A stretch of 64,000 nt of DNA from Akkermansiaceae bacterium (GCA_030725745.1 JANRFH010000016.1:8711-72710); one strand, 5' to 3'; numbered from the stretch's first letter, positions 6,863 to 61,682 are shown. The notes: generated by a model not told the origin, from the sequence alone. Numbers and translations are program-made.

Positions 6863-6939
6863 CGCGGGATGGAGAAGTCAGGTATCTCGTCAGGCTCATA
6901 ACCTGAAGATCGTAGGTTCAAATCCTGCTCCCGCAACCA
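6863..6939 (+). tRNA. Initiator tRNA-Met (CAT anticodon)
   Basis: The 77-nt cloverleaf is CGCGGGA-TG-GAGA-AGTCAGGTA-TCTC-G-TCAGG-CTCATAA-CCTGA-AGATC-GTAGG-TTCAAAT-CCTGC-TCCCGCA-A-CCA. The C1xA72 mismatch is typical of bacterial initiator tRNA. It is near-identical in layout to E. coli tRNA-fMet, and the CCA end is encoded. Confidence 0.9.
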
Positions 6940-10356: not shown

Positions 10357-10432
10357 AATATTAAGGTTTGATTGGTTAGACGAAGTTTGTGGGGATGAGA
10401 GTGAGGAAATATGTGGGGTTTCTTGAAGTGAT

Positions 10433-12055: not shown

Positions 12056-14517
12056 TTCGCTTCAATCTCGATCTGGGTTTGGGCGAGACCTTCGGAGTTT
12101 GCTTCGAGAGTAATGGTGCCGGGTTTATCCTCAAGACTGCGGATCACGACGAGGGCCATGCCGCTGAACGCCTTACGTTGGTTTCCTTGGAAGGATTCCA
12201 GACTAGTGGCATCGCCATTGTCGACGGCGACGATTTCGCCGGGGCCGTCGATAGTGAACGTAACGTTGTTGTCTGCGAGCGGGCAGAAGTTGCCGTCTTT
12301 GTCGGTGATTTTTACGGTAACGAAGGAGAGATCCGCGCCATCCGCACCGATGGTGGGTCGGTCTGCGGAGAGGTGGGTGCCGGCGGGGCTGCCTGAGGTG
12401 ACGCGGATGTCCTCGGCGATGGCTTTTCCGTCCTGATAGGCGACGGTTTTCAGCTCGCCTGGAGCGAAGGGCACATCCCAACGCAGGCGGTAGGGGGTGT
12501 TGTAATCGCCCTCTGTCCAGTTGTTGAAGGCGACCTTGATGGGTGTGGTGTCTTTGCCCTTGGCCTTGCGGCCGAGGGATTTCCCGTTGAGGAAAAGTTC
12601 GGCCTCGGCGGCATTGGTGTAGACGTAGACGGGGATGGTTTCGACTTCGTGATCCTGCCAGTTCCAGTGCGGCAGGACGTGAACCATGGGGTTGTCTTTT
12701 ACATCGGTCCATTGCGACTGATAGAGGAAGAAACGGTCTTTTGGGAATCCGCAGAGATCGACGGCACCGAAGTAGGACGAGCGTGACGGCCAGTCGTCAT
12801 TCCAGTAGCCGTTGGTCGAGTTGTCGCGGCCGCCGTAGGGTGTGGGCTCGCCGAGGTAGTCGAAGCCAGTCCAGATGAACTCACCGAGGACGTTCGGGTT
12901 TTCCTCCAGGGAACGAAACTCGATATCCGGCGGATAGGCCCATACGGGGCCGATAAGGTCGTAGGAAGTGACCTGTTTGGACGGGTGTTTTTCGTATTTC
13001 TCGATGGGCAGGTGATAGACGCCGCGTGAGGAGACGCAGGATGAAGTCTCGGAGCCGAGAATGTTCCAATCCGGATGTGCGGCGGTGACTTCCGAGTAGT
13101 TGAGAGGTTTGTAGTTGAAACCTGGGATATCGACTTCTGCTGCGAGGCCGTGGTTTACAGAGGCTGGGTAGTAGTTAAAACCGGCGGAGGTGAGGCGAGT
13201 GGGATCCTCATCTTTGGAGATGCGGTGGAGGTGTTGAGCGAGTTTCCAACCATCCTTTTTCGACTGTTCGAGGATCTCGTTGCCGATGGACCACATGATG
13301 ACTGAAGGATGATTACGGTCGCGGCGGATCATGTCGCGCAGGTCGCGCTCGTGCCAGGCATCGAAGAATTTGTTATAGCCGTTTTCGATTTTTGGCATCT
13401 GCCAGCAATCGAAGGCCTCCACCTGGACGAGTAGACCCATTTTGTCGCAAAATTCAAGCTGTTCGGGTGAGGGCGGGTTGTGGGATGTGCGGATCGCATT
13501 GACGCCCATGGATTTCATGATTTCCAGCTGGCGTTCGGTGGCGCGGCGATTGACGGCAGCTCCTAGAGCTCCGAGGTCATGATGCATGCAAACGCCCTTG
13601 AGTCGGACGTGTCGGCCATTGAGAAGGAGGCCGGTGCCGGGTGTGTATTCGACGGTGCGGATGCCGAAGGGCGTCTCGGTGCGGTCAATTTCCTTTTCCC
13701 CATCAAGAATGCGTGTGACGGCAGTGTAGAGCACCGGAGTGTCGAGATCCCAGCGTTGTGGATTGGCAACTTGTAGGTTGTGGCTAACGGGGAGGGTTTC
13801 TCCCGGATGGATGGCAAGGAGCGAGGATTCTTCGGCGACCTGTTTCCCGGAAGAGTCGAGCAACTGCGTTTGGATTTGAAATTCTGCCTGCGAGCTGCCG
13901 GAGTGGGTGATCTGGTTATCCACATTCACATCGGCCGAGGCTTCGCTGACGACCGGGGTGGTGACGAAGGTGCCCCAGTGGGCGACGTGAGTGAGCGACT
14001 TGGTTTCGAGCCATGTGTTCCGATAGATGCCGGCACCGGGGTACCAGCGTGAGGAGAGATCCTCGGGGGTGAGGCGGACGACGAGGGTGTTTTCAGCGCC
14101 GGGTTTGAGATGTGATGTGAGGTCGAACTGGAACCCAATGTAGCCGAAAGGGCGGGAGCCGAGGTGGTGACCGTTGATCCAGACGTGGGCATTATACATC
14201 GCGCCGTCGAACTCGATGGTGACGAGCTGATCTTTAAGGTCTGCGGGCGCGGTGAAAGTTTTCCGATACCAGCCTGTGCCGTGGAAGGGTAGTCCGCCGC
14301 TGCGGGCGTTGTATTTGATATCGAAGGGGCCTTCGATCGCCCAATCATGCGGCAGATTCAGCGTGCGCCATTCGGAATCGTCGAATTCTACGGATTCGGC
14401 ACCGGGGGCGTCGCCTTTTTGGAAAGTCCATCCCTTGTTGAATGACTCGCGGGTGCGGGCGTTCGCGATGAGAGGTAGTGATACCAGGGCTAGAAAGAGG
14501 GCTTTTTTGATGATCAT
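12052..14517 (-). CDS. GH2 beta-galactosidase-like glycoside hydrolase (paralogue 1)
   Basis: FNKGWTFQKGD...WRTLNLPHDWAIEGPF and the acid/base block NHPSVIMWSIGNEI are present in an 821-aa ORF with a signal peptide. Confidence 0.9.
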   Translation of the reverse strand: MIIKKALFLALVSLPLIANARTRESFNKGWTFQKGDAPGAESVEFDDSEWRTLNLPHDWAIEGPFDIKYNARSGGLPFHGTGWYRKTFTAPADLKDQLVTIEFDGAMYNAHVWINGHHLGSRPFGYIGFQFDLTSHLKPGAENTLVVRLTPEDLSSRWYPGAGIYRNTWLETKSLTHVAHWGTFVTTPVVSEASADVNVDNQITHSGSSQAEFQIQTQLLDSSGKQVAEESSLLAIHPGETLPVSHNLQVANPQRWDLDTPVLYTAVTRILDGEKEIDRTETPFGIRTVEYTPGTGLLLNGRHVRLKGVCMHHDLGALGAAVNRRATERQLEIMKSMGVNAIRTSHNPPSPEQLEFCDKMGLLVQVEAFDCWQMPKIENGYNKFFDAWHERDLRDMIRRDRNHPSVIMWSIGNEILEQSKKDGWKLAQHLHRISKDEDPTRLTSAGFNYYPASVNHGLAAEVDIPGFNYKPLNYSEVTAAHPDWNILGSETSSCVSSRGVYHLPIEKYEKHPSKQVTSYDLIGPVWAYPPDIEFRSLEENPNVLGEFIWTGFDYLGEPTPYGGRDNSTNGYWNDDWPSRSSYFGAVDLCGFPKDRFFLYQSQWTDVKDNPMVHVLPHWNWQDHEVETIPVYVYTNAAEAELFLNGKSLGRKAKGKDTTPIKVAFNNWTEGDYNTPYRLRWDVPFAPGELKTVAYQDGKAIAEDIRVTSGSPAGTHLSADRPTIGADGADLSFVTVKITDKDGNFCPLADNNVTFTIDGPGEIVAVDNGDATSLESFQGNQRKAFSGMALVVIRSLEDKPGTITLEANSEGLAQTQIEIEAK

Positions 14518-15979: not shown

Positions 15980-18900
15980 ATGAGTTCCAGAGTTTCCGTC
16001 ATAATCTCCAGTTTTGTAATATTGGCTCCCATGCTCGTGGCCGAAGAGGAGATCTCATTCAACCGGGATATCCGACCAATCCTTTCCGACCGATGTTTCA
16101 AGTGTCACGGGCCGGATGCGGAGAACCAGAAATCCGATTTTCGTCTCGATACCGAGAAGCACGCCCACGCGGATCTGGGTGGTTATTTCGGCATCGTGCC
16201 GGGGAATCTTGAGAAAAGCGAAGTTCACCACCTCATCCACACTGACGATGAGGATGAAGTGATGCCGCCGAAGGATTCAAATTTGAGCCTTAGTGCGCAC
16301 GAGAAGAAGTTGTTGGATTCGTGGATCAAGCAGGGTGCCAAGTTTGAAAAACACTGGTCGCTCAAGCCGCTGCCTCAGAATGTCCCGGTTCCGGAGAAGA
16401 TATCGGATTGGTCGAGAAATGAGATCGACCGCTTCGTGGAGGCCGGATTTGTGAAGCACGATGTGAAAGCTGCGGACGAAATTTCGCCGGAGAAGTGGTT
16501 GCGCCGGGTGAGCTTCGACCTCACCGGACTGCCACCCACTACTGAGGAAATATCCGCATATCTCGCTGACACCTCGCCGGAGGCCAGTGAGAAGGTCGTG
16601 AACCGTCTGCTGGATTCCACCCAATATGCGGAACGAATGACAAGCGAGTGGCTCGATGTCGCCCGCTATTCGGACTCCTATGGCTACCAGCGGGATCGCG
16701 AGCGCTTCGTCTGGCCGTGGCGCGACTGGGTGATCAAGGCGTTTCGCGAAAACATGCCCTATGATCAGTTCGCCACACTTCAGATCGCCGGTGATCTGCT
16801 GCCGGACGCTACCACCGAGACGATTTTACCTACGGCCTTCAACCGCCTTCACGGCCACGAGATGGAAGGTGGTATTGTGCTCGAGGAATACCGCATGGAA
16901 TACATCGCGGATCGTGCCCAAACCTTCAGTTCCGCGTTTCTCGGTCTAACCATGGAGTGCTGCCGTTGCCACGATCACAAATACGATCCGTTGCCGACCC
17001 GTGACTACTACTCGCTGGGCGCGTTCTTCGCGAACATCGAGGAATCCGGCCTTATTTCTTATTTTACTGACGCCACTCCCACACCGGCCATGCCGATTTC
17101 CACACCCGAGGCGGATGCGGAAATGACTGCCGCAGAACCGCAGATCGCTGCGGGTGAAGCCAAGCTCACCGCCCTCCGCAACGCACCGGAAACCCGTATG
17201 GTGTTCGAAAATTGGTTGGGCAAGCGCCCTTCGCTCGACTGGCCGGGTCTGGTGGCCGATCTGTCGTTCGATGTGATTGAGGACGGCAAGTTATTGAACT
17301 CCGTCGCTCCGAATTCACCGGCCACCACTCCACCGGCGAATACCTTGGTTCCTGGGAAAAACGGACAAGCTATCCACTTCACGGGTGACGACCCTTTAAT
17401 ACTCCCGAAAGTCGGTCACTTTTCCCGCGAGCATCCCTACTCGGCATCATTCTGGGCGAGGCCGCACGCGATCACTGCCCGTGAGAATTTTTTTAGCCGC
17501 TCCCACGGTGGGGATGATGCCGCGAGCATCGGCTACGAGTTTTTGCTGCTCGATGGGAAGCCCACCGCCTCGGTGATTCATTTCTGGCCTGGCAACGCCA
17601 TCCGCGTACAGGCAAAGCAGGCGCTCAAGCCCGGCGAATGGCAGCATCTCGCCATGAGCTACGATGGCTCTAGTAAAGCGGCAGGTCTGAGCATCTATTT
17701 GAATGGGGAACCACTTGAATTGGAAATCATCGTCGACCACCTGACTGGCCAGACCACCGAATGGACTATGGACATGAAGGATATTGTGCTCGGCGAGCGC
17801 TACCGCGACCGCGGCTTTATCAATGGGGAAATGGACGACTTCCGATTCTTTGACCGCCGCATCGTGGATGCCGAGGCTCGCCAGCTTTTCGACCAGACCT
17901 ATCTTGCCGATCTGCTTGCCAAAAATGCAGCCGAACTGAGCGAATCAGATCGCGGAGAGTTATATGATTACTTCCTCGCTACCGCGTATGATCCGTATCG
18001 ACTCGCTGCTGGGGAGCTTGCCGCTGCACGCAAGCGTTGGAACGATGCGATGGATCCTCTGCCATCAATCACAATCATGCGCGAGTTGCCCGAGCCGAAG
18101 CCCTCCTTCGTTCTGACACGGGGTGCCTACGACAGCCACGGCGAGCCCGTTACTGCGGACACGCCCACAGCGCTCCCTCCGTTTCCTACTGACCAGCCGA
18201 ACAACCGTCTCGGACTCGCCCGCTGGCTGACACAGCCGGATCATCCGCTTACCGCACGCGTTACGGTGAACCGCTATTGGCAGATGATTTTCGGAAACGG
18301 TATCGTAAGCACGCCGGAAGACTTCGGTAGCCAAGGCAGCCTGCCGACCCACCCTGAGTTGCTCGATTGGCTCGCCCGCGACTTCGTGGAGCACGATTGG
18401 GATCTTCATCACCTGCTTGGCCAGATGGTGCTCTCCTCCACCTACCGCCAGAGTACGGTGACGGATGCCGCTACACGGGAAATGGATCCGGAAAATGCCT
18501 TCCTCTGCCGCGGAAATAACCGTCGTCTCACCGGAGAAATGATCCGTGACAACGCGCTCGCCGTCAGCGGACTACTCGTTGACAAGATCGGCGGCCCACC
18601 GGTAAAGCCCTACGAACTCGCCGTTTCATTCGAGCCACAGGTGCCCGACAAGGGAGACGGCCTTTACCGCCGCAGCCTCTACACGCTCTGGAAGCGCAAT
18701 GCCCCGGCTCCCATGCTCGTCACCTTCGATGCGCCGAAACGCGACGTTTGTAGCCTACGCCGTGCCACCACCACCTCGCCGCTCCAGTCACTCGTCACCC
18801 TCAATGGCCCACAGTTCATCGAAGCCTCGCGAGTGCTCGCCGCGAAGCTCATGCGAACCCATGGAGGCGATCATGAAGCCTTGATCAAGGAAGCGTTTCT

Positions 18901-19123
18901 TATTCTAACAAGCCGCGAGATCCAGGCCGAAGAGGCGACTATCCTTAATGGACTCCACGCCACCCAGCTCGCGGACTTCTCCGCCAACCCCGAACAAGCT
19001 GCCAGTTTGCTTGAAACCGGAGAGGCTCCTGTCCCATCCGATCTACCCTTGGCGGAACTCGCCACTAACACCGTCCTCATCAATACTATGATGAACTTCG
19101 ACGAATCCCTAAACCAGCGATGA
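15980..19123 (+). CDS. PSCyt1 / DUF1549 (PSCyt2) / LamG / DUF1553 (PSD1) multidomain protein
   Basis: The N-terminal planctomycete-type cytochrome c motif is FNRDIRPILSDRCFKCHGPD. The DUF1549-like block is RRVSFDLTGLPPT. A central concanavalin/LamG-like insert (GEWQHLAMSYDG...LYLNGE-type) is present. The DUF1553-like C-terminus is FDAPKRDVCSLRRATTTSPLQSL. Confidence 0.85.
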   Translation: MSSRVSVIISSFVILAPMLVAEEEISFNRDIRPILSDRCFKCHGPDAENQKSDFRLDTEKHAHADLGGYFGIVPGNLEKSEVHHLIHTDDEDEVMPPKDSNLSLSAHEKKLLDSWIKQGAKFEKHWSLKPLPQNVPVPEKISDWSRNEIDRFVEAGFVKHDVKAADEISPEKWLRRVSFDLTGLPPTTEEISAYLADTSPEASEKVVNRLLDSTQYAERMTSEWLDVARYSDSYGYQRDRERFVWPWRDWVIKAFRENMPYDQFATLQIAGDLLPDATTETILPTAFNRLHGHEMEGGIVLEEYRMEYIADRAQTFSSAFLGLTMECCRCHDHKYDPLPTRDYYSLGAFFANIEESGLISYFTDATPTPAMPISTPEADAEMTAAEPQIAAGEAKLTALRNAPETRMVFENWLGKRPSLDWPGLVADLSFDVIEDGKLLNSVAPNSPATTPPANTLVPGKNGQAIHFTGDDPLILPKVGHFSREHPYSASFWARPHAITARENFFSRSHGGDDAASIGYEFLLLDGKPTASVIHFWPGNAIRVQAKQALKPGEWQHLAMSYDGSSKAAGLSIYLNGEPLELEIIVDHLTGQTTEWTMDMKDIVLGERYRDRGFINGEMDDFRFFDRRIVDAEARQLFDQTYLADLLAKNAAELSESDRGELYDYFLATAYDPYRLAAGELAAARKRWNDAMDPLPSITIMRELPEPKPSFVLTRGAYDSHGEPVTADTPTALPPFPTDQPNNRLGLARWLTQPDHPLTARVTVNRYWQMIFGNGIVSTPEDFGSQGSLPTHPELLDWLARDFVEHDWDLHHLLGQMVLSSTYRQSTVTDAATREMDPENAFLCRGNNRRLTGEMIRDNALAVSGLLVDKIGGPPVKPYELAVSFEPQVPDKGDGLYRRSLYTLWKRNAPAPMLVTFDAPKRDVCSLRRATTTSPLQSLVTLNGPQFIEASRVLAAKLMRTHGGDHEALIKEAFLILTSREIQAEEATILNGLHATQLADFSANPEQAASLLETGEAPVPSDLPLAELATNTVLINTMMNFDESLNQR

Positions 19124-20571
19124 AAAATCCACTCTGCACCGGCTTCGAAAATCCTGTAGGCGTCAGCCGCCGTAGCTTCCTCAACTCCTTCGGCATGGGC
19201 CTCGGCGGTATCGCCCTCGGCAGCATGATGAATAAGGCTGGAGCCTCTAACGTTTCGCTGGGTGGCCAGCAAATGTTCCCCAACTTCGCGCCCAAGGCGA
19301 AACGTGTGATTTATTTGTTCCAGTCCGGCGCGCCTTCCCAGATGGATCTTTTCGATCACAAACCGCGCCTCAATGCCGAGCATGGACAGGAGCTTCCGGA
19401 ATCAGTTCGCGACGGTCAGCGCCTCACCGGTATGTCCACCAATCAGGCCAGCTTCCCGCTCGCCGGTTCGCCTTTCAAGTTTAAGCAGCACGGCGAGAGC
19501 GGAGCCACCCTCAGTGAACTCCTGCCTTACACCGCCGGCGTTGCCGACGAGTTGTGCTTTATCAAAACCATGTATACCGAGGCGATCAACCATGGCCCCG
19601 GTGTGACCATGATGCAGACCGGTTCTCAGTTTCCGGGTCGTCCTACCATCGGTGCGTGGGGATCTTACGGGCTTGGCTCGCTCAATGAAAATCTCCCCTC
19701 CTATGTGGTGCTCGTCACCAAGGAAGGCGGCGGCCAGCCCATCACCTCTCGTTACTGGGACAGTGGATTCCTCCCGGGAAAACATGACGGCGTGCTCTTC
19801 ACTCCCAGTAAGGATGCTGTTCTCTATCTAAATAGCCCGGAAGGCATCAGCAAAGGCAGCCGCCGCGAGGTGATTGATGCGCTGCAGAAGCTCCACGAAA
19901 TCCAACTCGCGAAGACTAGCGACCCCGCGCTCGAAACGCAGATCGCCCAATACGAAATGGCCTACCGCATGCAAAGCTCTGTGCCGGATGTCACCGACTT
20001 CAGTGATGAATCCGAATCCACGCTCAAGCTCTACGGCGACGACGTCCGAACGCCCGGAACCTATGCCTACAACTGCCTCATGGCCCGCCGCCTCGCGGAA
20101 AAGGGAGTGCGCCATATCCAACTCTTCCACCGTGACTGGGACGCCCACGCCGGCTTGCCCAAGGCTATACAAGGTCAGTGTAAACTTACCGACCAACCGT
20201 CAGCCGCGCTGGTTAAGGATCTAAAAATGCGCGGACTGCTGGAAGATACGCTTGTCATCTGGGGTGGTGAATTCGGCCGCACGAATTACTGTCAGGGAAA
20301 AATGACCAAGGACGACTTCGGTCGCGATCACCATCCGCGCTGCTTTACCCAATGGATGGCTGGCGGTGGCGTGAAGCCCGGATACACCCACGGCAGCACC
20401 GATGAGTATGGCTACAGCATCGAGAAAGACCCGGTTCACGTCCACGACTTCCACGCAACGCTGCAACACCTGCTAGGTGTTGATCACGAGAAACTCACGT
20501 TCAAGTATCAAGGCCGCCACTTCCGCCTCACCGATGTGCACGGCAAGGTGGTTAAGCAGATCTTGGCCTAG
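19120..20571 (+). CDS. DUF1501 (sulfatase/alkaline-phosphatase-like) protein with a Tat signal
   Basis: The Tat-like N-terminus is SRRSFLNSFGMGLGGIALGS. An ATGA overlap joins it to the preceding DUF1553 gene, which is the classical PVC gene pair. Confidence 0.85.
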   Translation: MKNPLCTGFENPVGVSRRSFLNSFGMGLGGIALGSMMNKAGASNVSLGGQQMFPNFAPKAKRVIYLFQSGAPSQMDLFDHKPRLNAEHGQELPESVRDGQRLTGMSTNQASFPLAGSPFKFKQHGESGATLSELLPYTAGVADELCFIKTMYTEAINHGPGVTMMQTGSQFPGRPTIGAWGSYGLGSLNENLPSYVVLVTKEGGGQPITSRYWDSGFLPGKHDGVLFTPSKDAVLYLNSPEGISKGSRREVIDALQKLHEIQLAKTSDPALETQIAQYEMAYRMQSSVPDVTDFSDESESTLKLYGDDVRTPGTYAYNCLMARRLAEKGVRHIQLFHRDWDAHAGLPKAIQGQCKLTDQPSAALVKDLKMRGLLEDTLVIWGGEFGRTNYCQGKMTKDDFGRDHHPRCFTQWMAGGGVKPGYTHGSTDEYGYSIEKDPVHVHDFHATLQHLLGVDHEKLTFKYQGRHFRLTDVHGKVVKQILA

Positions 20572-26287: not shown

Positions 26288-27628
26288 ATGAACTGGATAT
26301 TGTCGACAATCCCGGCGAAGCCAAATATTCCCATGCTAGTTCCATGTCCCCATTGCAAAACCGACCTTGATGCCTCGCCGGATCACTACGGTCAGACCGT
26401 CCAGTGCCCCGCTTGTAACGGTCGTCTACAGATCCCAGCCGCAGCAGACGAGCCATCAACAACCGATCCCTCCGGCACCCCGCGCCCAGAACGCTCCGGC
26501 TGGGAGGAAACTGATCACGCCAACGTCGATTTCGGAAAAAGCCTCCTCATCGGCGGTGCCATCACTGTCGTTTTCCTCGTGGCGCTCATTCCCTTCAAGG
26601 ACAGCTTTGGGGCTATTTTCATTGATCGCGGATGGGTCAACTGGGCGGAAACTTTCCTTTTCATCTGGGGCATGACCATCCTCTTCATGAAACTGAAGAA
26701 AAACCAACATCAGGAACGCGCCACTCTCCTTGAGCTTTTCCCCGCTCGTATCGGGAAGGAGATTCACCGCGAAAACGTCGGTGAGTTCATCGACAACGTC
26801 TACCGCACCCCACTCACCCTGCGAGACAGCCTATTCGTCAACCGCATACGTAAAGCCCTCGAACTCTTCGAAAAACGCGGCGACAATACCGAGGTCGCGT
26901 CCTTCCTTTCCACCCAGTCAGACATCGATGCTAACCGCTCCACTGGCTCCTACTCGCTCCTGAAAGTCTTCCTCTGGGCCATCCCCATCCTCGGCTTCAT
27001 CGGCACGGTCATGGGACTCTCCACCGCCGTCGGCTCGCTCGCCATGGGTGACAATGCCGACCCGGAAGCACTGAAACAATCCATCAACAGCCTCACCGGC
27101 GGCCTCGGCGTCGCTTTCGACACTACCTTGCTCGGCCTCATCCTCTCCATGCTGATGAGCTTCCCGATGGCTGCTGTGCAGAAAAAGGAAGACGAGACGC
27201 TCACCCTCATCGATGCTTTCACCACCGAGAAACTCCTACCCAAGCTCAACGATAGCCGCAACCCGGTCTCCGACAGCCTCTTGCAGCAGGCCGATAGCAT
27301 TCCTCAGCTTGTCGCCTCACTCGCCCGAGCCCACGAGACATTCCTCGTGAACCTCAACGAATCCACCATCCAGCTCAAGGAAAGCGGGAAGTCCATGGAA
27401 GATCGGCTCAACAGGCATCAGGAAGTCGTGCAAACCAACTTCACCAACGCCGTGGAAAAACTAACCGATACCAGCGGCGAAGTCTTCATCAAATCCCACA
27501 TCGAGCTGGCTAAGACCTTCGACAAGATCGCCAACGGCATCGACCTCATCAACCACGCCCTCCGCGATCTCGGCCAGAACAAGATCCCGGACAGCGCGAA
27601 GAGGAAGAAAGGCTTCTTCAGTAGATAA
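26288..27628 (+). CDS. MotA/TolQ/ExbB-family proton channel with an N-terminal zinc ribbon and a C-terminal helical tail
   Basis: The zinc ribbon is CPHCKT...CPACNG. There are four hydrophobic segments and the channel signature IPILGFIGTVMGL...GGLGVAFDTTLLGLILSM. A helical C-terminal extension of about 130 aa follows. An alternative start at 26333 (MLVPCPHC) is possible. Confidence 0.75.
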   Translation: MNWILSTIPAKPNIPMLVPCPHCKTDLDASPDHYGQTVQCPACNGRLQIPAAADEPSTTDPSGTPRPERSGWEETDHANVDFGKSLLIGGAITVVFLVALIPFKDSFGAIFIDRGWVNWAETFLFIWGMTILFMKLKKNQHQERATLLELFPARIGKEIHRENVGEFIDNVYRTPLTLRDSLFVNRIRKALELFEKRGDNTEVASFLSTQSDIDANRSTGSYSLLKVFLWAIPILGFIGTVMGLSTAVGSLAMGDNADPEALKQSINSLTGGLGVAFDTTLLGLILSMLMSFPMAAVQKKEDETLTLIDAFTTEKLLPKLNDSRNPVSDSLLQQADSIPQLVASLARAHETFLVNLNESTIQLKESGKSMEDRLNRHQEVVQTNFTNAVEKLTDTSGEVFIKSHIELAKTFDKIANGIDLINHALRDLGQNKIPDSAKRKKGFFSR

Positions 27629-27643
27629 CCTCCTTTTCGACCC

Positions 27644-28456
27644 ATGCCCAAGCGCAGAACCAGTAATGACGAGGGAGTTTCCCTCTTCTCGTTCATGAGT
27701 ATCCTGGCATGCCTCATTGGCATCCTCACGCTCATGATCAGCGTGACGATGCAAGTCAATCAGATGAACCAGGAAGGCAAGACCGAGGAGGAACTCGCGC
27801 GCGCCATCGAAAACCGCGATACCAAGAAAAAAACCGAGGCCACGAAGAAGGAAGTCGCAAAACTCGAAGAAAAGCTACAGAAGGAAAAATCCACCTCCGC
27901 CGAGATGGCCAAGCTCGAAGACCGGACAATCGTTCTCCGTTCGAAACTCGACGAAATCCAAAAAGCAACCGATCCGAACGAGACCGACGCTTCCCTGCAA
28001 AAAATCGTTGAGAACCTGAAGCAGGAAATCACCCGGCTGAAAGGGGAGCGCCCGCCGTTGCAGAATCGACTCTCCGAGCTTCAGGAAGAACTTAAGAAAC
28101 GTAAGGAGCCCCCTAAGGCCGTCGAGTCAGTGATCATCCGCCCCGGCGGGGTGGGCTCGCGCCATGCTCGCAACCTCTTCTTCGTCGAGTGCAACTCGAC
28201 AGGTATCGTGATCATCGATGAGAACGGTCAGTCAAAACCCGTTTCCAAAGCTGCCATCCCGACCAACGAGGATTTCAGTTCGCTGCTCGAAAAAGTGAAG
28301 AGCACGGATGATTCGATGGTTCTTTTCCTGATCCGCAAGTCCGGCAACGAAGCCTATCTGTGGGCCGCCGGCATTGCCGAAACAAAATACGAGATCAGCA
28401 CCGGTAAACTGCCGATCCCCAACGAGGGCAAAATCGATCTCTCCCTTTTCAATTAG
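27644..28456 (+). CDS. Single-pass membrane protein, ExbD/TolR-like anchor + coiled coil + ExbD-like C-terminal domain
   Basis: The N-terminal anchor is GVSLFSFMSILACLIGILTLMISV. An E/K-rich heptad region of about 110 aa follows, then a globular end (NLFFVECNSTGIVIIDENG...MVLFLIRKSG). The gene starts 15 bp after the MotA-like gene. Confidence 0.6.
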   Translation: MPKRRTSNDEGVSLFSFMSILACLIGILTLMISVTMQVNQMNQEGKTEEELARAIENRDTKKKTEATKKEVAKLEEKLQKEKSTSAEMAKLEDRTIVLRSKLDEIQKATDPNETDASLQKIVENLKQEITRLKGERPPLQNRLSELQEELKKRKEPPKAVESVIIRPGGVGSRHARNLFFVECNSTGIVIIDENGQSKPVSKAAIPTNEDFSSLLEKVKSTDDSMVLFLIRKSGNEAYLWAAGIAETKYEISTGKLPIPNEGKIDLSLFN

Positions 28457-28460
28457 ACCC

Positions 28461-29570
28461 GTGGCGCGCAAACGAAAAAACAGCTCAGATGGAGGGATCA
28501 ATCTTGATTCCCTGATGGACGCGCTCACCAACGTGGTGGCCGTGCTCATCCTCGTGCTTGTTCTTGTTCAGGCAGATGTCACCCAGAAGGTGGTGAAGTT
28601 CCTCGAAGACCTACAGCCCGCCACTCCGGAGGAAGTCAAAGCATCGAAAGATTTGCTCGAAGAAATCGAGAAGAAGAAGGAGTCCGTAGTGGAGAAGCTC
28701 AAGGAAGATGCGCCGACTCTCGCCGAAATCGAAGAGGAAAAGCGGCGCATAGCCCTACTGGAAAAAAGCATCGTAGAAAGCGACGAACTGCTCGCCGATG
28801 TCAAGGAACTCAAAGAGCTAGAAGAAAAGATTCGTAAGGAGCGCGACGCCGAGAATGAGCAGACCGTTAGCATTCAGGAAGAGATCGCCAAGCTAGAAGC
28901 TCAACTCGACCAGACGCCGGTGATCCAAGCCCCGCCGCCGGCCGAGGTCACCATTCCCAACAGCCGACCAATTCCGCCCAAGGCGGTTGTTTACCATGCA
29001 CTCGCCATCAAGGATAGGGTTCACATCATCGATCCCAACGGTCTGCTGGAGGTCTTCGAAGAAGAGTTCAAAAAGCACAAGCGCGACTGGCTCATCGAGC
29101 GCATCAAACAGCAGGGTTTTGATCGGTATATCTATGATCAGGAGAAGATCACCGCACACTTCAAGAATTTCGATTTCAGGAACACCCAGGGACAGAAGGT
29201 TGAAATAATCGCCTACCCTGCGGGTAGCCGTCTTCACATCGAAGTCAGTCCGGATCTTGAGAAAGGCGGCACGCCGATGGAGGAACTTGAAAAACCGGGT
29301 TCGGCGTATTCAAAAGCCGCCCTAAAAATGAAAAGCGACAGTCGCTCAGTGGTTCTATTCCACGTAAATCCGGATTCCTTCAACACCTACCTCAAGGGTA
29401 GGGGACTGCTGGATCGCGCGAACATTCCGGCAGGATGGGAGGTTTCGGGTGCAAAATCTTGGCGTTTTCCAATCCCGGACATCGAAGTAAACAGGTTAGA
29501 GGATCCGCCGCCTGCTCCCGACAAGCCGAAGCCGCCAGGGCCGCCCGTAATAGGGCCGAAATTGGATTGA
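28461..29570 (+). CDS. Single-pass membrane protein, ExbD/TolR-like anchor + coiled coil + Pro-rich spacers + globular domain
   Basis: A GTG start at 28461 gives MARKRKNSSDGGINLDSLMDALTNVVAVLILVLVL, an ExbD-like N-terminus. A coiled coil of about 130 aa follows. The Pro-rich segments are QAPPPAEVTIPNSRPIPPK and EDPPPAPDKPKPPGPPVIGP. The track start at 28374 would overlap the previous gene by 83 bp. Confidence 0.6.
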   Translation: MARKRKNSSDGGINLDSLMDALTNVVAVLILVLVLVQADVTQKVVKFLEDLQPATPEEVKASKDLLEEIEKKKESVVEKLKEDAPTLAEIEEEKRRIALLEKSIVESDELLADVKELKELEEKIRKERDAENEQTVSIQEEIAKLEAQLDQTPVIQAPPPAEVTIPNSRPIPPKAVVYHALAIKDRVHIIDPNGLLEVFEEEFKKHKRDWLIERIKQQGFDRYIYDQEKITAHFKNFDFRNTQGQKVEIIAYPAGSRLHIEVSPDLEKGGTPMEELEKPGSAYSKAALKMKSDSRSVVLFHVNPDSFNTYLKGRGLLDRANIPAGWEVSGAKSWRFPIPDIEVNRLEDPPPAPDKPKPPGPPVIGPKLD

Positions 29571-31349: not shown

Positions 31350-33884
31350 TCAAGGCTGGATTTTCACAACAAGCTTGTCGGAGACGAAGTCACCGCAGCG
31401 GGCGGTCACCGTCACCACCCTTGGTTTGTCTTCGGACTGAATCAAAAGAAGGGCGCGACCCTGCCATGTGGTGAGATGGTTCGTCTGATAGGGTTGCACG
31501 CTTTTTTCCCAGCCGTTGTCCACTCCTAACAGCCGCGCCGGGCCGTCCACCTCGAAGGTGATTTCCTGGTCATCTTTGACGACGGGCACACCGTCCTTGT
31601 CCGTAAGTTGGAGTTCCACGCGGGTCACATCGTATTGATTTGCAGCCATCGTTTTCCGGTCTGCTTTGAGTTCGATTTTTGCCGGTGAACCGTGAGTGAG
31701 GAGGGTGTCGCTGGTGACGGGTTGACCTCCATCAAGTCCTACCAGCTTGAGTTCGCCCGCTTCGAAGGGCACCAGCCATTTGGCGATTCGGTCTTCCAGA
31801 TCGGCCATTTTCCGGGTGCCAAGTGAATTTCCGTTGAGGAAAAGTTCCACCTCGTCGGTGTTTCCGTAAGCTTGGACGATAGTGGATTCTCCGGGTTGGT
31901 AGTTCCAGTTGGCGGAAACGAAATCCCATTCCCAGGGGCGAAGCCATTTCATTTTGGGATATTCATAGATGCGCTCGGTGAACTTCCATCCGTCTTCTTT
32001 GGTGTAGCTGTATTCGGATTCCGTAGCGGCGGTGCTGCCGACCCAGACTTTCGGTTTGTCGACCCACATGGCTTCAAAAAAGTGGCCACGCGGGGTTTTG
32101 AATCCGGCGTAATCGAATAGGGAAATCTCAAGTCCTTTGCGTGGCCATGGGCCGGCCTCGCCAAGATAAGCATAGCCTGTCCAGATGAAGATCCCGGCGA
32201 CGAAATCACGGTCGAGCGCAGCTTTCCATTCTGCCCAAGTGCCCCAGTTCTCAGAACCCACGATGCGAGCTTCGGGATACATTTTGTGGGCGGTGTCATA
32301 TTCCCCGGCACGGTAGTTGAATCCGACGACGTCGAGCGCATCGGTGTAGCCGGTGACGAAGCCGACGGACGGTTTCACGAGGCCGGAGGTAACCGGGCGG
32401 GTGGGATCAGTTTCTTTGACCCAACCGGAAAGTTTAACGGCTGTTTCGGCGAGCTCGTCGGGGCCATCGAGGAGCCTTGCCATGCGTTCGCGGATTTTTA
32501 CCGGATCGTAGTCGACGGGGTGAGAGTGGACGTTTTCGGCGGCGCCTTCTGGCACGGGGTTGGCGGACTGGGGATAATAGGGGTAGGTCCACTCGATTTC
32601 GTTGCCGATGCTCCACATGATAACGGACGGATGGTTGCGATCCCTGCGAATAGTGGCTTTGACATCGCGCTCGGCCCACTCGTCAAACAGTTCGAAATAA
32701 CCATGGGTAACGTCTTTGGGGGCGATGTTGTCGCTGAGATAGACCAGCGACTTTTCCTTGGGGACTTTCCATTCATCGAAAAACTCGTCCATGACAAGTA
32801 GACCCATTTCATCGCATAGATCCAGTAGATCGGTTGCGTGCGGATTGTGGGCAGTGCGGATGGCGTTTACACCGATGTCTTGTAACTTTGTGAGACGGTC
32901 GCGCCAGACGTCTTTCGGCACGGCCACGCCGAGGAGTCCTGCATCGTGGTGGAGGTTCACGCCTTTGAGTTTTACCTGACGGTCGTTGAGGAGAAATCCG
33001 CGTTCGGAATCGAACACCGCAGTGCGAATGCCGAAGTTCACCCTACGCTTGTCGAGTGATTTTCCGTCACGTTCGAGACGGATGTGTGCCTGATAGGTTT
33101 TCGGCGATGTGACGTCCCAGCGTTGTGGTTCGGCGATGTCGAGAGGGATGTCGACCTTGCTGTCTTCGGTGGGTTGATAGGTCTGTGTGTGGCTTGCGAC
33201 GGTTTTCCCATCCGGATCCAGCAGGTCAACGGTGACTTGGATCGCTTCGTCGGTTGGTGAGGAAATTTCCGTAGTGACGGTGACGGAAGATTTCTCGTCA
33301 GTGATTTCAGGAGTCTGAACCCAGACGCCCCATTCGGGTATGTGGGTGGGAGCGGTTTTGATGAGATGGACGTCGCGATAGATGCCGGAGCCGCAATACC
33401 AACGGGTGTCGAGATAGGATGAGTGATCCGCCCGGACGATCAGTTCGTTGGATTCTTCTCCGAAGTTCGCGTGCTTGGTCAGATCCAGATCGAAGGAAAC
33501 GAATCCACTTGGGCGACCGCCGATTTCGTGGCCGTTGAGCCAGACTGTGGAGCGCTTGTAAATGCCCTCGAAGACGATGGCCACACGTTCGCCGCGCCAG
33601 TCCTCCGGGAGTTTGAATTCCTTCCGATACCAGCCGATGCCGCCTGGCAGGAAGCCGGTGCTGCATCCGGTCTTCTCCTGTGTGAATCCGTCGGCGATGG
33701 ACCAATCATGGGGTAGACGAACCGCTTGCCATTTCGCCTCGTCTTTTTCTTCACCGAGTTGGAATTTCCAGTCGAAATTGAAGTCCTGCACGATGCGTCC
33801 GGGATCGGCATGACAGATGCCGATCAGCGAAATCAGGAGTGCGAGAGTCAATTGGCGTAGGTAGGCATAATTGAAGAGATACAT
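31350..33884 (-). CDS. GH2 beta-galactosidase-like glycoside hydrolase (paralogue 2)
   Basis: FNFDWKFQLGE...VRLPHDWSIADGF and [21 protein letters not shown] are present in an 844-aa ORF with a signal peptide. Confidence 0.9.
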   Translation of the reverse strand: MYLFNYAYLRQLTLALLISLIGICHADPGRIVQDFNFDWKFQLGEEKDEAKWQAVRLPHDWSIADGFTQEKTGCSTGFLPGGIGWYRKEFKLPEDWRGERVAIVFEGIYKRSTVWLNGHEIGGRPSGFVSFDLDLTKHANFGEESNELIVRADHSSYLDTRWYCGSGIYRDVHLIKTAPTHIPEWGVWVQTPEITDEKSSVTVTTEISSPTDEAIQVTVDLLDPDGKTVASHTQTYQPTEDSKVDIPLDIAEPQRWDVTSPKTYQAHIRLERDGKSLDKRRVNFGIRTAVFDSERGFLLNDRQVKLKGVNLHHDAGLLGVAVPKDVWRDRLTKLQDIGVNAIRTAHNPHATDLLDLCDEMGLLVMDEFFDEWKVPKEKSLVYLSDNIAPKDVTHGYFELFDEWAERDVKATIRRDRNHPSVIMWSIGNEIEWTYPYYPQSANPVPEGAAENVHSHPVDYDPVKIRERMARLLDGPDELAETAVKLSGWVKETDPTRPVTSGLVKPSVGFVTGYTDALDVVGFNYRAGEYDTAHKMYPEARIVGSENWGTWAEWKAALDRDFVAGIFIWTGYAYLGEAGPWPRKGLEISLFDYAGFKTPRGHFFEAMWVDKPKVWVGSTAATESEYSYTKEDGWKFTERIYEYPKMKWLRPWEWDFVSANWNYQPGESTIVQAYGNTDEVELFLNGNSLGTRKMADLEDRIAKWLVPFEAGELKLVGLDGGQPVTSDTLLTHGSPAKIELKADRKTMAANQYDVTRVELQLTDKDGVPVVKDDQEITFEVDGPARLLGVDNGWEKSVQPYQTNHLTTWQGRALLLIQSEDKPRVVTVTARCGDFVSDKLVVKIQP

Positions 33885-38291: not shown

Positions 38292-39437
38292 ATGAGCGAT
38301 TACAACGATCCATTTCAAGAAGCACGTGGCAAGTGCCCGATTCATGTCGGCACTTTTGACGGAGAGAAAGTACCGATGATTCTTCGCCTCAAAGATGTGC
38401 GAACAGCGGCGAAGGACTCCACGACTTTCAGTTCCGATGCGCCACTGCGGGTGCCGATACCTTCGGAAAAAGATGTGCGGACGGTGCGGCAGTATCCGTT
38501 GGAAGTAGATCCTCCGGTGCATGCGGAGTATCGAAAAATCGTCGAGCCGTTTTTCCTTCGCCCGAAGCAGCCGGATGTGCTTGCAAAAATCCATGGCTTG
38601 ATCGATTCGCTTTTGAACAAGGCTCTGGAGGCGGGCTCGATTGATGCGGTGAAGGATTTCGCGATTCCACTTCAGTCCTATGCATTGACCTACCTGCTCA
38701 ATGTTTCGGAAAAGGAAGCGGAGCTATGGGTGAGTTGGGGAATTCATGTGTTCAAGGATGGCGACGGGAAATCCAAAGGGCCATTCATGGAAAAATACTG
38801 CCAGCAGATGTTCGAGGCTGCGGCGGAGAATCCGGGTGATGATTTTTTCTCTGCGCTTAATCAAGCGGAGTTCCAGGGGCGCCTCCTCACCATGGAGGAA
38901 AAGCTTGGTTATGCGAATATCGCCTTCGCGGGTGGACGCGATACCATCATCCATACGGCCACGCGGATCATTGCCTACTTTGCAGAACATCCCGAGGCCT
39001 TAGATTGGATTCGTGAGAACCCGGCTCGGATCAATCTGGCCTCCGAAGAGTTCTTCCGCCTGTTCATACCACTCACGCATATCGGTAGGGTTTGTCCGGT
39101 GAAGACGGATGTGCATGGATTCGAGGTGCAGGCTGAGGGGCGTGTTTCCCTGTGCTGGTCTTCCGCGAACCGTGATCCCGAGGTGTTTGACGAACCGAAC
39201 GAAGTGAAGCTCGACCGGAAACCAAACCCGCACGTGGCATTCGGATTCGGAGCGCACAACTGCCTCGGTGCACATCATGCGCGAGCCATCATGCGTGGCT
39301 TGATCAAGGCGCTCTCAGAGAAGGTTTCCGACATAGAGGTTCTTGAAACTACGGAACTTGTTGAGAGGGAACCTGATTACACCCGGATGGTCGGCTACGA
39401 ACTGCTGAGGACGAAATTCACCAAGCTTTCATCATGA
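38292..39437 (+). CDS. Cytochrome P450 monooxygenase (compact, 381 aa); candidate 6-O-methyl-D-galactose demethylase
   Basis: The heme loop is FGFGAHNCLGAHHA, the I-helix is AFAGGRDTI and the ExxR motif is EEFFRL. It lies immediately downstream of the ferredoxin gene. Confidence 0.85.
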   Translation: MSDYNDPFQEARGKCPIHVGTFDGEKVPMILRLKDVRTAAKDSTTFSSDAPLRVPIPSEKDVRTVRQYPLEVDPPVHAEYRKIVEPFFLRPKQPDVLAKIHGLIDSLLNKALEAGSIDAVKDFAIPLQSYALTYLLNVSEKEAELWVSWGIHVFKDGDGKSKGPFMEKYCQQMFEAAAENPGDDFFSALNQAEFQGRLLTMEEKLGYANIAFAGGRDTIIHTATRIIAYFAEHPEALDWIRENPARINLASEEFFRLFIPLTHIGRVCPVKTDVHGFEVQAEGRVSLCWSSANRDPEVFDEPNEVKLDRKPNPHVAFGFGAHNCLGAHHARAIMRGLIKALSEKVSDIEVLETTELVEREPDYTRMVGYELLRTKFTKLSS

Positions 39438-40543
39438 TTTTTCAAGCGAAGGCGGCAGTCGCCGACAACAAGGGATCTTTCACCATTGAAGAGATCGAGG
39501 TTCATCCGCCCGGGGCGGGGGAGGTACGCGTGGCGCTCAAGGCGTCCGGCATCTGCCACACCGATTACGATTCACTGAACTGGGGCTACCACCACGTGCT
39601 TGGCCACGAGGGTGCTGGTATCGTGGAGTCGGTGGGCGAGGGAGTGACTCATGTGAAGGCCGGCGACAAGGTGCTGCTCAACTGGGCGATTCCGTGCCGC
39701 TGCTGCTATCAATGCCAGACCGGGCATCAGAATATCTGTGAGAAGAATTCGCCCGTCACCGGCTCAAATCCCGATGACGGCGCAGCTCAGGCGGGAACGA
39801 CGCGATGGAGGGGCGAGGCTCTGAAACGTTCGTTCAACATTGGAACGCTTAGCAATTACACCGTGGTGAAACAAGAGGCGGTGATTCCCTACAATGTGGA
39901 AATTCCTTTTGAATCCGCCTGCATCATCGGTTGCGGCGTGATGACCGGCTACGGATCGGTGGTAAATGCGGCCAAGCTCGCGGCCGGTAGCAGTGCCGTG
40001 ATCCTTGGCACGGGAGGTGTTGGGCTCAATGTCATTCAAGGCGCTCGCATTTCGGGTGCTGCGAAAATCATCGCAGTCGACGTGAATCAACAACGTCTCG
40101 ACATGGCCAAGCAGTTTGGTGCGACGCATCTGATCTTGGCTGACAGGGACGATGTGGGACTCATGAAAGCATCAGAAAAAGTCAAAGAACTCTGTGGCGG
40201 AAGAGGCGCTGATTATGGGTTCGAATGCACGGGTATTCCTGCGCTCGGTGCGGCTCCGTTGGCGATGGTTCGCAATGCGGGAACGGCAGTGCAGGTTTCC
40301 GGAATCGAGCAGACCATAGAGATCGATATGAACCTGTTCGAGTGGGACAAAATTTACATGAACCCGCTCTATGGCATGGCGATGCCCGAGTTTGATTTCC
40401 CGAAACTTTTGGATCTCTACAGTCAGGGTGCTCTGATGCTGGATGAATTGATCACCCGAACCTATGCGCTCGAAAACTTGCAACAGGCGATCGACGATAT
40501 GATGGCTGGCCGCAATGCCAAGGGAGTCGTGGTATTTCCATAA
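39434..40543 (+). CDS. Zn-dependent alcohol dehydrogenase (class III-like MDR)
   Basis: GICHTDY, GHEGAGIVESVGEGV and the Cys cluster CRCCYQCQTGHQNIC are present. An ATGA overlap joins it to the P450 stop. Confidence 0.85.
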   Translation: MIFQAKAAVADNKGSFTIEEIEVHPPGAGEVRVALKASGICHTDYDSLNWGYHHVLGHEGAGIVESVGEGVTHVKAGDKVLLNWAIPCRCCYQCQTGHQNICEKNSPVTGSNPDDGAAQAGTTRWRGEALKRSFNIGTLSNYTVVKQEAVIPYNVEIPFESACIIGCGVMTGYGSVVNAAKLAAGSSAVILGTGGVGLNVIQGARISGAAKIIAVDVNQQRLDMAKQFGATHLILADRDDVGLMKASEKVKELCGGRGADYGFECTGIPALGAAPLAMVRNAGTAVQVSGIEQTIEIDMNLFEWDKIYMNPLYGMAMPEFDFPKLLDLYSQGALMLDELITRTYALENLQQAIDDMMAGRNAKGVVVFP

Positions 40544-40544
40544 T

Positions 40545-41354
40545 ATGACTGACCAAGCATCCTATTTCCGAACCACCGAGACCGGAGATTTTCCCTGTCC
40601 GGGTGGTATCTTGAAACATATGACCGTGAAGAGCCCGGCGCTGGGTGCGCGGGTAGACGCCTCGGTTTATGTGCCGGAGCAGGCAAAGGGTCTTGAAAAC
40701 GTGCCGGTGGTGATCCTCCTGCACGGCGTCTACGGTAGTCACTGGATTTGGGCGGGGATGGGCAAGGCACATACGTCGCTGCAATCGCTGATCGATGCGG
40801 GCGAAATTGAGCCGATGATTTTAGTGATGCCATCCGACGGTTTGTGGGGCGATGGCAGCGCCTACCTGAAGCACAACAGCAAGGATTTCGAGAAATGGGT
40901 TGTCGATGAGGTGCCGCGACTCGTGAGTGAGGTCACAGGCAACTCACCGGATGCGCCGCTTTTCATAGCCGGGCTTTCGATGGGTGGGTACGGCGCTCTG
41001 CGCATCGGCGCGACCTATCCGGATCGTTTCACGGCCTTCGCAGGGCATTCATCGATCACGCGTTTCAGTGAGATGAGCCAGTTTGTCGAAGAGCCGCTGG
41101 ATGCTTACGGGGAAATCGATGAAGAGGAGAACACCGTGATCAACACGATACTGCGAAACAAGGATAGCCTGCCACCGTTTCACTTCGATTGCGGAGTGGA
41201 TGATGAGTTGATCGAGGGGAATCGCCGGCTTTACGCGGAGTTGCGTGAAGCGGGGATCAGTTGTTCCTATCAGGAGTTCCCAGGCGGCCACGAATGGCCA
41301 TACTGGGTAGAGCATATCCGGGATACGTTTCTGTTCTTTGGTCGCTGCAGGTAG
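40545..41354 (+). CDS. Esterase-D/putative-esterase family serine hydrolase
   Basis: The nucleophile elbow is GLSMGGYGAL, and VVILLHG and FPGGHEW are also present. The start is trimmed to the ATG at 40545, 1 nt after the ADH stop. Confidence 0.7.
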   Translation: MTDQASYFRTTETGDFPCPGGILKHMTVKSPALGARVDASVYVPEQAKGLENVPVVILLHGVYGSHWIWAGMGKAHTSLQSLIDAGEIEPMILVMPSDGLWGDGSAYLKHNSKDFEKWVVDEVPRLVSEVTGNSPDAPLFIAGLSMGGYGALRIGATYPDRFTAFAGHSSITRFSEMSQFVEEPLDAYGEIDEEENTVINTILRNKDSLPPFHFDCGVDDELIEGNRRLYAELREAGISCSYQEFPGGHEWPYWVEHIRDTFLFFGRCR

Positions 41355-48167: not shown

Positions 48168-50723
<2,556 letters not shown>

Positions 50724-59796: not shown

Positions 59797-59830
59797 GGTA
59801 GACGGAGATTGGGAAATGGCCGGGTCATAG

Positions 59831-59840
59831 TTGTCGACAA
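59831..59840. promoter_or_regulatory. Candidate GntR operator TTGTCGACAA (perfect 10-bp palindrome)
   Basis: It lies about 35 bp upstream of the GntR paralogue 1 start, at the head of the ~18-kb minus-strand operon. It fits the GntR-family T-GT-N-AC-A half-site logic. Confidence 0.5.
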
Positions 59841-61651: not shown

Positions 61652-61672
61652 GGCAGTGAAAGCGGTTGAACC

Positions 61673-61682
61673 TTGTATACAA
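61673..61682. promoter_or_regulatory. Candidate GntR operator TTGTATACAA (perfect 10-bp palindrome)
   Basis: It lies 22 bp upstream of the GntR paralogue 2 start codon. Confidence 0.5.

Follow-up and report, generated by a model that had tools for sequence, protein, structure and literature searches.

A conserved three-gene cassette of Verrucomicrobia and Planctomycetes encoding a MotA/ExbB-family subunit and two stalked ExbD-like proteins, apparently an undescribed form of 5:2 ion motor

Does an ion-driven motor encoded amid sugar-catabolic genes serve the use of glycans, or is its setting accidental? This question is raised by a 64,000-nucleotide stretch from an Akkermansiaceae bacterium (GCA_030725745.1 JANRFH010000016.1:8711-72710; the whole stretch at its full length is called the window in the following), which matches contig JANQZE010000021.1 (assembly GCA_030728605.1). 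It holds three tightly packed, co-directional genes, here termed g1, g2 and g3, with intergenic gaps of 15 bp (g1-g2) and 4 bp (g2-g3). An initial annotation of the DNA had read them as a 5:2-type motor with long periplasmic stalks, possibly energising outer-membrane passage of oligosaccharides. The open reading frames (ORFs) and their spacing were found again, as were all motifs quoted at that time, namely CPHC...CPAC, IPILGFIGTVMGL, GGLGVAFDTTLLGLILSM, (V/M)ARKRK..GINLDSLMDALTNVVAVLILVLVL and both Pro-rich stretches. From the evidence given below, we consider it most probable (roughly 0.6) that the cassette encodes a self-contained, vertically inherited ion motor of the 5:2 class (MotA/ExbB), probably driven by protons, which is confined to the Planctomycetes-Verrucomicrobia-Chlamydiae (PVC) superphylum and functionally independent of the glycan genes. 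No prior description of the cassette was found in a literature search, and it apparently represents a conserved, undescribed form of 5:2 motor.

A pattern scan with one genome per species returned at least 590 loci encoding the cassette, the best 80 of which were examined by lineage. These 80 fall into the groups Akkermansiaceae/Luteolibacter/Haloferula/Roseibacillus, Verrucomicrobiaceae (Prosthecobacter, Brevifollis), Chthoniobacterales/Terrimicrobiaceae, Pirellulales and Planctomycetaceae. Identity of g1 to the window's protein drops broadly with taxonomic distance, from about 60-81% in Akkermansiaceae and close relatives to about 37-57% in other verrucomicrobial groups, with values of 41-49% at two planctomycete-labelled loci. 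At every locus with enough sequence (more than 80) the order g1-g2-g3 is kept, the sole exception being L082, and the same trio is also present in distant representatives with g1 identities of 30-37% (proteins of 429-1094 aa). At L082 (222-3113), g2 and g3 are inverted and converge on g1, still adjacent to it, and the g2 head bears an insertion of about 45 aa. Some of the taxonomic labels are probably wrong: contig L017, labelled Cryomorphaceae (Bacteroidota), holds a cassette 65% identical to that of the window, and several environmental metagenome-assembled genomes (MAGs; L035, L041, L052 and L077) labelled 'Akkermansia muciniphila' have cassettes only 43-55% identical.

The genes around the cassette are not conserved with it. 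Clustering of all flanking ORFs from 84 loci gave no fourth conserved gene, only shadow ORFs and lineage-local synteny, and in none of the other loci (80+) do the window's flanking genes lie beside the cassette. Instead, neighbours include a release factor, a major facilitator superfamily transporter and carB in Haloferula helveola, a Na+/H+ exchanger, a sulfatase and an acetyl-CoA synthetase in Luteolibacter algae, and a rhamnosidase and prepilin-like proteins in another MAG. Hence, the glycan setting appears accidental to the window's genome, and the link to a glycan locus drawn in the initial annotation is not borne out across more than 80 loci in two phyla. Conservation irrespective of glycan genes, which had been named there as the observation that would speak against this link, is in spirit what was found, although the cassette differs from a canonical Tol/Exb system and has no fixed position. 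Core-like vertical inheritance together with high sequence conservation favours a housekeeping function over a defence or substrate-specific one, probably in the envelope, where the motor might act in Tol-like tethering or in the transmission of force or torque.

The glycan setting as such was well described, however, and it would be an argument for a motor that energises outer-membrane uptake or secretion of oligosaccharides as a substitute for TonB. An AraC regulator gene lies 71 bp upstream of the cassette, and around it are GH2, sulfatase and sugar-catabolic genes, including those for an aldo-keto reductase, an altronate dehydratase, a xylose-isomerase-like TIM barrel protein, an amidohydrolase and an SSF transporter. 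Besides, g3 has a Pro-rich tail, and genes for carbohydrate-active enzymes (CAZymes) or sulfatases are also found beside the cassette in some relatives (for example at L005 and L006), though such genes abound genome-wide there. We nevertheless regard this explanation as highly improbable. Apart from the lack of any conserved neighbour, the flanks in Haloferula and Luteolibacter algae feature genes of amino-acid or nucleotide metabolism in addition to carB and the exchanger. Moreover, neither g2 nor g3 matches TonB_C and no His is seen in either anchor, so that the TonB likeness formerly noticed in g3 is compositional only. In line with the absences stated in the initial annotation, the called genes of the window (about 1-60.7 kb) lack Pfam domains of TonB_C, TonB-dependent receptors, OmpA/MotB, flagellar and Tol-Pal proteins, and, apart from an uncharacterised ORF, its last 3 kb encode only a prepilin-like protein and a GntR regulator. 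TonB and its receptors have been reported in all Verrucomicrobia examined and in few Planctomycetes (PMC3422733). Verrucomicrobia thus have TonB systems anyway, and the presence of the cassette in both phyla, with TonB being rare in Planctomycetes, argues against a simple Ton role.

The product of g1 belongs to the MotA/TolQ/ExbB family, its residues 187-300 matching PF01618 at 43.6 bits (gathering cutoff 22.9; E=3.1e-11). In an alignment of 23 relatives reaching down to 30% identity, the channel signature reads WAIPILGFIGTVxG ... GGLGVAFDTT, with P218, G221, G224, T225, G257, T265 and L269 being invariant and T264 nearly so. The channel-lining Pro, Gly and Thr residues are kept in the last two transmembrane (TM) helices, where the presumed equivalence to residues of ExbB and MotA rests on the motif register. 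Also conserved in this alignment are RGWVxYAETFLFxW in the TM1-TM2 region, the segment IDxYCNENLLKRL following TM4 and the TM2-TM3 loop (R171, L176, F179, R182, S196 and D199 invariant), while the zinc-ribbon cysteines C5, C8, C25 and C28 (numbered on the 431-aa protein) vary little or not at all. As a cytoplasmic zinc ribbon is followed by four TM segments, the predicted topology would be MotA-like and not of the three-TM ExbB type. The initial annotation had recognised the ribbon, the channel and the tail of g1 correctly, as the PF01618 match and the alignment of relatives attest; its 446-aa ORF was also recovered. Homologues of g1 have 429-432 aa and begin with MLVxCPxC, so that translation probably starts at the ATG at 26333, giving a protein of 431 aa.

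The zinc ribbon gives weak profile matches to the GltJ/AgmX zinc finger 7zok (E=0.029) and to the PDB entry 2nb9 (E=0.061), and Pfam Zn_ribbon_4 is present in some g1 homologues. It could accordingly be asked whether the cassette encodes an Agl-like motor for surface motility or transport, running along an envelope-spanning track, with the ribbon recruiting a cytoplasmic polarity or GTPase platform as in GltJ/ZitP. Gliding is not known to be a general trait of the host lineages, and no glt-like or adhesin genes are conserved among the flanking ORFs. Hence, we see only a slim chance for such a role, even though the one-plus-two gene logic is that of AglR/AglQ/AglS and zinc fingers such as those of GltJ and ZitP serve to dock proteins (PMC11135422).

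Downstream of the channel core, the tail of g1 is variable and helical, ending with LNxxLxxLG...RGxF. Its hydrophobic period of 3.65 indicates amphipathic helices and not a heptad coiled coil. According to a Pfam scan, g1 relatives of 776-1094 aa differ only by a much longer apolipoprotein-like tail and keep the same cassette. Long orthologues within the three-gene cassette are encoded, for example, at L077 (6388-9222, about 944 aa) and L091 (2725-6009, about 1094 aa).

A variable tail, bringing g1 to total lengths of 429 to 1094 aa, is also a trait of ZorA, and the best non-Pfam profile matches of g1 are ZorA models (PADLOC ZorA2, E=6.8e-14; NCBIfam ZorA_2), which perform about as well as PF01618 or better; a match to PDB 8vvn_C can likewise be read as ZorA-like. 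The cassette might then be a Zorya-like envelope sensor or defence system in which the ring senses envelope perturbation via the periplasmic heads and, using its cytoplasmic tail and its zinc ribbon, signals to effectors whose genes lie elsewhere. However, all scores of g1 against NCBIfam ZorA_1-4, PomA and MotA are far below the cutoffs (ZorA_2 32.4 bits versus 100; other ZorA models lower). An OmpA-like peptidoglycan-binding domain as in MotB and ZorB was not detected in g2 or g3 with Pfam, NCBIfam and PADLOC, the only ZorB trace being a match of g2 to ZorB1 at E=0.086 across anchor and stalk, and no neighbour resembles ZorC, D, E, F or G. As the distribution is vertical and core-like (65-81% identity across genera), unlike that of defence islands, we consider a Zorya-like role improbable.

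Homologues of the two downstream genes number 409 for g2 and 443 for g3, all annotated as hypothetical and none with a Pfam domain, and neither protein of the window matches any Pfam family. Profile-profile comparison of their N-terminal halves (anchor plus stalk) with hhalign resulted in 96.7% probability (E=3.2e-10). Hence, g2 and g3 are paralogues, and both have the single-pass, ExbD-type anchor and the long helical stalk that had been ascribed to them from the outset. The anchors, VSLFPFMSILACLIG in g2 and (I/V)NLDSLMDALTNVVAVL in g3, are in register with INVTPFIDVMLVLL of E. coli ExbD (TPFIDVML; confirmed with the sequence of PDB 6tyi). The ExbD-type motif PF[ML](S/D)IL of g2 thereby brings Ser19, invariant in the family alignment, to the position of the essential Asp25 of ExbD. 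The corresponding motif of g3 is LMD with an invariant Asp; D20, T23 and N24 do not vary in the family alignment, and the Asp is retained in all lineages examined, including planctomycetes and relatives with only 30% identical g1. A transpore helix with a protonatable Asp is thus present in g3 and absent from g2 in the window, but it occurs in the g2 orthologues of Prosthecobacter fluviatilis (L080), Brevifollis (L084) and a Planctomycetaceae MAG (L085), which read VPFLDIL or FPFLDIL. Accordingly, the Asp is probably ancestral in g2 and its loss tolerated. The genes showing this natural Ser/Asp toggle are located at 9488-10417 (L080), 9502-10425 (L084) and 1775-2605 (L085).

The stalks following the anchors are fixed in length. 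From the TM motif to the head, g2 has 146-151 aa in 62 of 66 loci and g3 has 145-151 aa in 63 of 66, over phylum-level divergence. Lengths of the two stalks do not covary (r = -0.04), as there is too little variation to correlate, and it is the constancy that is informative. Between residues 38 and 150 of g3, the hydrophobic period is exactly 3.50, a value reached in 1/1000 shuffles. The g2 stalk is less regular, with a period of 3.55 at residues 116-155 (8/1000 shuffles), no clear period at 48-108 and conserved Pro breaks at 111, 137 and 138. Conserved Pro breaks also occur in the g3 stalk, at different places and hence out of register with those of g2.

These data bear on how the two B subunits are arranged. 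Strict co-occurrence of g2 and g3 and their equal stalk lengths favour a heterodimer. Alternatively, a g3 homodimer might form the Asp-bearing axle, with g2 being a peripheral protein, a regulator or a plug like TolA or TonB, or g2 and g3 might form separate homodimeric motors. Loss of the Asp from g2 in most lineages and the discordant Pro breaks would fit such an arrangement. Against it speak, however, the full ExbD-type helix PF-x-(S/D)-IL that g2 retains, including the Asp in some lineages, the shared conserved length of the two stalks and the constant pairing of the two adjacent genes. Furthermore, no His of the SHLS type (motif according to PMC12204202) is seen in the anchors. On balance, we take this arrangement to be rather unlikely and continue with the heterodimer.

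Both stalks lead to globular heads, for which AlphaFold2 models were obtained with predicted local distance difference test (pLDDT) values of 81.6 (g2) and 89.4 (g3). In Foldseek searches, the lowest-rmsd (root-mean-square deviation) matches of the g2 head were E. coli TolR 5by4 (probability 0.99, TM-scores 0.50/0.56, rmsd 3.1 Å) and ExbD 8p9r (probability 0.91, target-normalised TM-score 0.63), which would be in keeping with the ExbD-like character ascribed earlier to this protein. In the C-terminal half of the g3 head, the core has the same order of elements as g2 (beta-beta-alpha-beta-alpha-beta-beta), and g3 residues 247-339 align locally with the g2 head in hhalign (E=4.9e-4, probability 32%). 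On the basis of this shared order and the weak alignment, the g3 model seems to have an additional subdomain in front of an ExbD-like core. Top Foldseek matches of the g3 head to a retroviral integrase and Argonaute were dismissed as meaningless (rmsd > 15 Å). In Verrucomicrobiaceae, g3 is about 150 aa longer, apparently due to an insertion in the globular region.

At the entrance of the heads, g2 bears VxVxxRPGG and g3 VTIPNSRPIP, which by eye resemble the V-x-V-x-LP strand of ExbD and TolR. The two Pro-rich spacers formerly assigned to g3 are indeed present, but the first one is this conserved head-entrance motif and not a TonB-like spacer. At the C-terminus, P361 is invariant and P362, P366 and D369 are nearly so, in a variable Pro-rich stretch of only about 20 aa. 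A terminal [LIV]D is kept across all lineages, with ends such as PKLD, KRSLD, KLRLD, DILD and SVVD.

Taken together, the family of g1, the anchors of g2 and g3, the stalks and the g2 head support the 5:2-type motor proposed in the initial annotation, and a mechanism may be sketched. A pentamer of g1 would form the membrane ring, four-TM and MotA-like, with the TM3/TM4 Pro-Gly-Thr signature intact, and its zinc ribbon, conserved loop and lineage-variable tail could constitute a cytoplasmic interface or docking module. Inside the ring, the ExbD-type helices of g2 and g3 might combine to a heterodimeric axle, in which only g3 would supply a protonatable Asp (D20), g2 having Ser in most lineages. 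Driven by ion flow via Asp20 of g3, ring and axle would rotate against each other. Paired stalks of about 147 residues between TM motif and head, an estimated 15-18 nm if extended, would continue the axle into the periplasm and bear the ExbD/TolR-like heads at their ends. Finally, the Pro-rich spacer and terminal [LIV]-Asp of g3 may touch peptidoglycan or a partner in the outer membrane whose gene lies elsewhere in the genome.

Several observations weigh against this interpretation. Stoichiometry and pairing of the subunits are what we infer, and we know of no characterised precedent for a motor axle with a single Asp. No output partner was identified, none being conserved among the flanking ORFs of the 84 loci. 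Considering the conserved Pro breaks of the stalks and the prefoldin-like hairpin matches of g2, the stalks may fold back instead of spanning the periplasm. Hidden Markov model search does not place g2 and g3 in ExbD, as neither matches PF02472 (ExbD/TolR); matches of the Asp-bearing g2 orthologues are in the correct register and in this respect speak for ExbD kinship, but they are faint (14.0 and 9.5 bits) and below the cutoff of 25.4 bits. Searching both proteins for ExbD, TolR, MotB and TonB with Pfam, NCBIfam, PADLOC and PDB profiles yielded coiled-coil noise only, and hhalign of g2 and g3 against E. coli ExbD found nothing. Foldseek E-values of the g2 head are weak (0.03-0.09), and for the g3 head nothing significant was retrieved, TolR 5by4 ranking 4th at a probability of 0.28.

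Going beyond the self-contained motor, the cassette might encode a PVC-wide motor with two outputs and a core function in atypical envelopes, combining the single-Asp heterodimeric axle with a ring platform of zinc ribbon and tail. The length-calibrated periplasmic stalk with its C-terminal docking peptide would then be one output and the cytoplasmic ring platform the other. Conceivable roles are the coupling of inner membrane to peptidoglycan or outer membrane, replacing Tol-Pal or acting beside it, and the sensing of periplasmic width. This extension is tentative, and we are inclined to doubt it. Coordinates of all cassette features are compiled in Table 1.

Table 1. Features of the g1-g2-g3 cassette. 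Positions are counted from the first nucleotide of the window; residue numbers of g1 refer to the 446-aa ORF.
Feature	Position	Strand	Basis
g1, A subunit of the MotA/TolQ/ExbB family	26288..27628	+	PF01618; 446 aa is the longest ORF
g1, N-terminal zinc ribbon C20-P-H-C23 ... C40-P-A-C43, predicted cytoplasmic	26345..26416	+	Cys conservation, profile matches
g1, predicted TM1-TM2 hairpin, residues ~84-135	26537..26692	+	hydrophobic segments in the sequence
g1, putative cytoplasmic TM2-TM3 loop, ~93 aa, MotA-like position	26693..26971	+	alignment; inferred topology
g1, TM3-TM4 channel core (WAIPILGFIGTVMG ... GGLGVAFDTTLLGL)	26972..27187	+	within PF01618-matching region
g1, putative cytoplasmic helical tail, ~145 aa	27188..27625	+	apolipoprotein-like and ZorA-like profile matches
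g2, ExbD-like B subunit, 270 aa, Ser at canonical Asp position	27644..28456	+	homologues, hhalign to g3
g2, predicted transpore helix VSLF(S/P)FMSILACLIGILTLMISV, Ser19 codon 27698-27700	27677..27751	+	alignment
g2, predicted helical stalk, residues ~37-160	27752..28123	+	coiled-coil/prefoldin-like matches only, periodicity
g2, predicted periplasmic head of TolR/ExbD-like fold	28124..28453	+	AlphaFold2, Foldseek
g3, ExbD-like B subunit, 369 aa, GTG start, conserved Asp	28461..29570	+	homologues, alignment
g3, predicted transpore helix INLDSLMDALTNVVAVLILVLVLVQ, Asp20 codon 28518-28520	28497..28571	+	alignment
g3, heptad-periodic stalk, residues ~38-160	28572..28940	+	periodicity, length conservation
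g3, predicted periplasmic globular region, extra N-terminal subdomain and ExbD-like core (~29193-29495)	28941..29495	+	AlphaFold2, hhalign
g3, Pro-rich C-terminal tail ending ..PKLD-COOH	29496..29567	+	alignment

Elsewhere in the window, a phage-type integrase gene (7163-8449) comes after a tRNA-Met gene (6863-6939), directly upstream of a block encoding fucosidase, sulfatase and GH2 proteins, an arrangement which points to a genomic island that has integrated there with glycan genes on it. The 3' end of the tRNA-Met gene has no attR copy in the window; such a copy would bear on whether the cassette is within an island of this kind. The CAZyme region is dense, with sulfatase, GH16, GH43 and fucosidase genes alongside three large paralogues of GH2-family glycosidases (12052-14517, 31350-33884 and 48168-50723), between which short stretches of DNA are conserved (repeat families D2, D4 and D10). 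At 15980-20571, a 1047-aa PSCyt1/PSCyt2/Laminin_G_3/PSD1 protein is translationally coupled to a DUF1501 protein; pairs of this type are typical of Planctomycetes and Verrucomicrobia and have no known function. At 38292-41354, an esterase gene adjoins those of a cytochrome P450 and of a zinc-dependent alcohol dehydrogenase, forming an oxidative module within the glycan region, and the source contig has a called ferredoxin gene next to that of the P450. Close to the window's end, a prepilin-type gene (60162-60962; weak Pfam match to N_methyl) lies between the ORFs 59197-59856 and 61052-61822, which are paralogues with about 73% DNA identity over 300 nt. The former ORF has Pfam matches to GntR and FCD, and the latter is GntR-like by sequence similarity only.

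Ion-driven 5:2 motors such as MotAB, ExbBD, TolQR, GldLM and ZorAB are a small set of machines moving energy from the inner membrane elsewhere, and each newly characterised one has so far exposed a new cell-biological process. The cassette spans two phyla with unusual and poorly understood envelopes, and both of its B subunits are annotated as hypothetical. It offers three natural experiments: one canonical axle Asp is swapped for Ser in most lineages and kept in others, stalk length is fixed within a few residues despite sequence drift, and the tail of the ring subunit brings g1 to between 429 and 1094 aa. For genome mining, the example also cautions that adjacency to CAZyme genes in one genome is no evidence of a glycan function.

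Compared with known systems, the cassette would work like ExbBD, TolQR and MotAB and, by the tests run, lies outside the ExbD, MotB/ZorB, TonB and Zorya families. With ExbB-ExbD and TolQ-TolR it shares an A subunit in PF01618, N-in single-pass B subunits in which a basic N-terminus precedes a transpore helix of the PF-x-D type, and a strand resembling V-x-V-x-(L/I)P ahead of a predicted beta-alpha head, that of g2 superposing best on 5by4 and 8p9r. In contrast to these systems, the A subunit combines four TM segments with a zinc ribbon and a tail of 145 aa, two different B subunits are present, one of them without the Asp, and about 110 aa of helical stalk separate helix and head, with PF02472 not being reached; besides, no TonB/TolA, Pal or TolB gene adjoins the cassette. 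GldL-GldM of type IX secretion and gliding is a 5:2 motor as well, the dimeric B subunit of which is a long periplasmic shaft towards the outer membrane. The likeness is conceptual only; the GldM shaft consists of globular domains, unlike the helical stalks of the cassette, and no genes of the type IX secretion system are near the cassette.

ZorA-ZorB comes nearest in the architecture of the A subunit, g1 being likewise tailed with a variable C-terminal helical cytoplasmic region. Differences from Zorya I-III are the missing peptidoglycan-binding ZorB domain and conserved effector genes, ZorA scores below curated cutoffs and the core-like, vertical distribution. The nearest gene logic is that of AglR-AglQ-AglS from Myxococcus, where one TolQ-like gene is followed by two non-identical TolR-like genes; in this machine, cytoplasmic zinc-finger docking resides in GltJ (PMC11135422), whereas in the cassette the ribbon is part of the motor subunit. 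By description, the long stalks and large heads of the B subunits as well as the lack of Glt genes set the cassette apart from AglRQS. Within the same superphylum, other clusters of a tolQ gene, two heterologous tolR genes and genes for von Willebrand factor A (vWA) and tetratricopeptide repeat (TPR) proteins have been surveyed under the term 'force transducer' (PMC12204202). They resemble the cassette in pairing a TolQ-like gene with a heterologous TolR-like pair, but include the TPR and vWA genes, whereas the cassette conserves three genes only and its B subunits themselves bear the long periplasmic extension. The same survey stresses that further 5:2-driven systems await discovery (PMC12204202).

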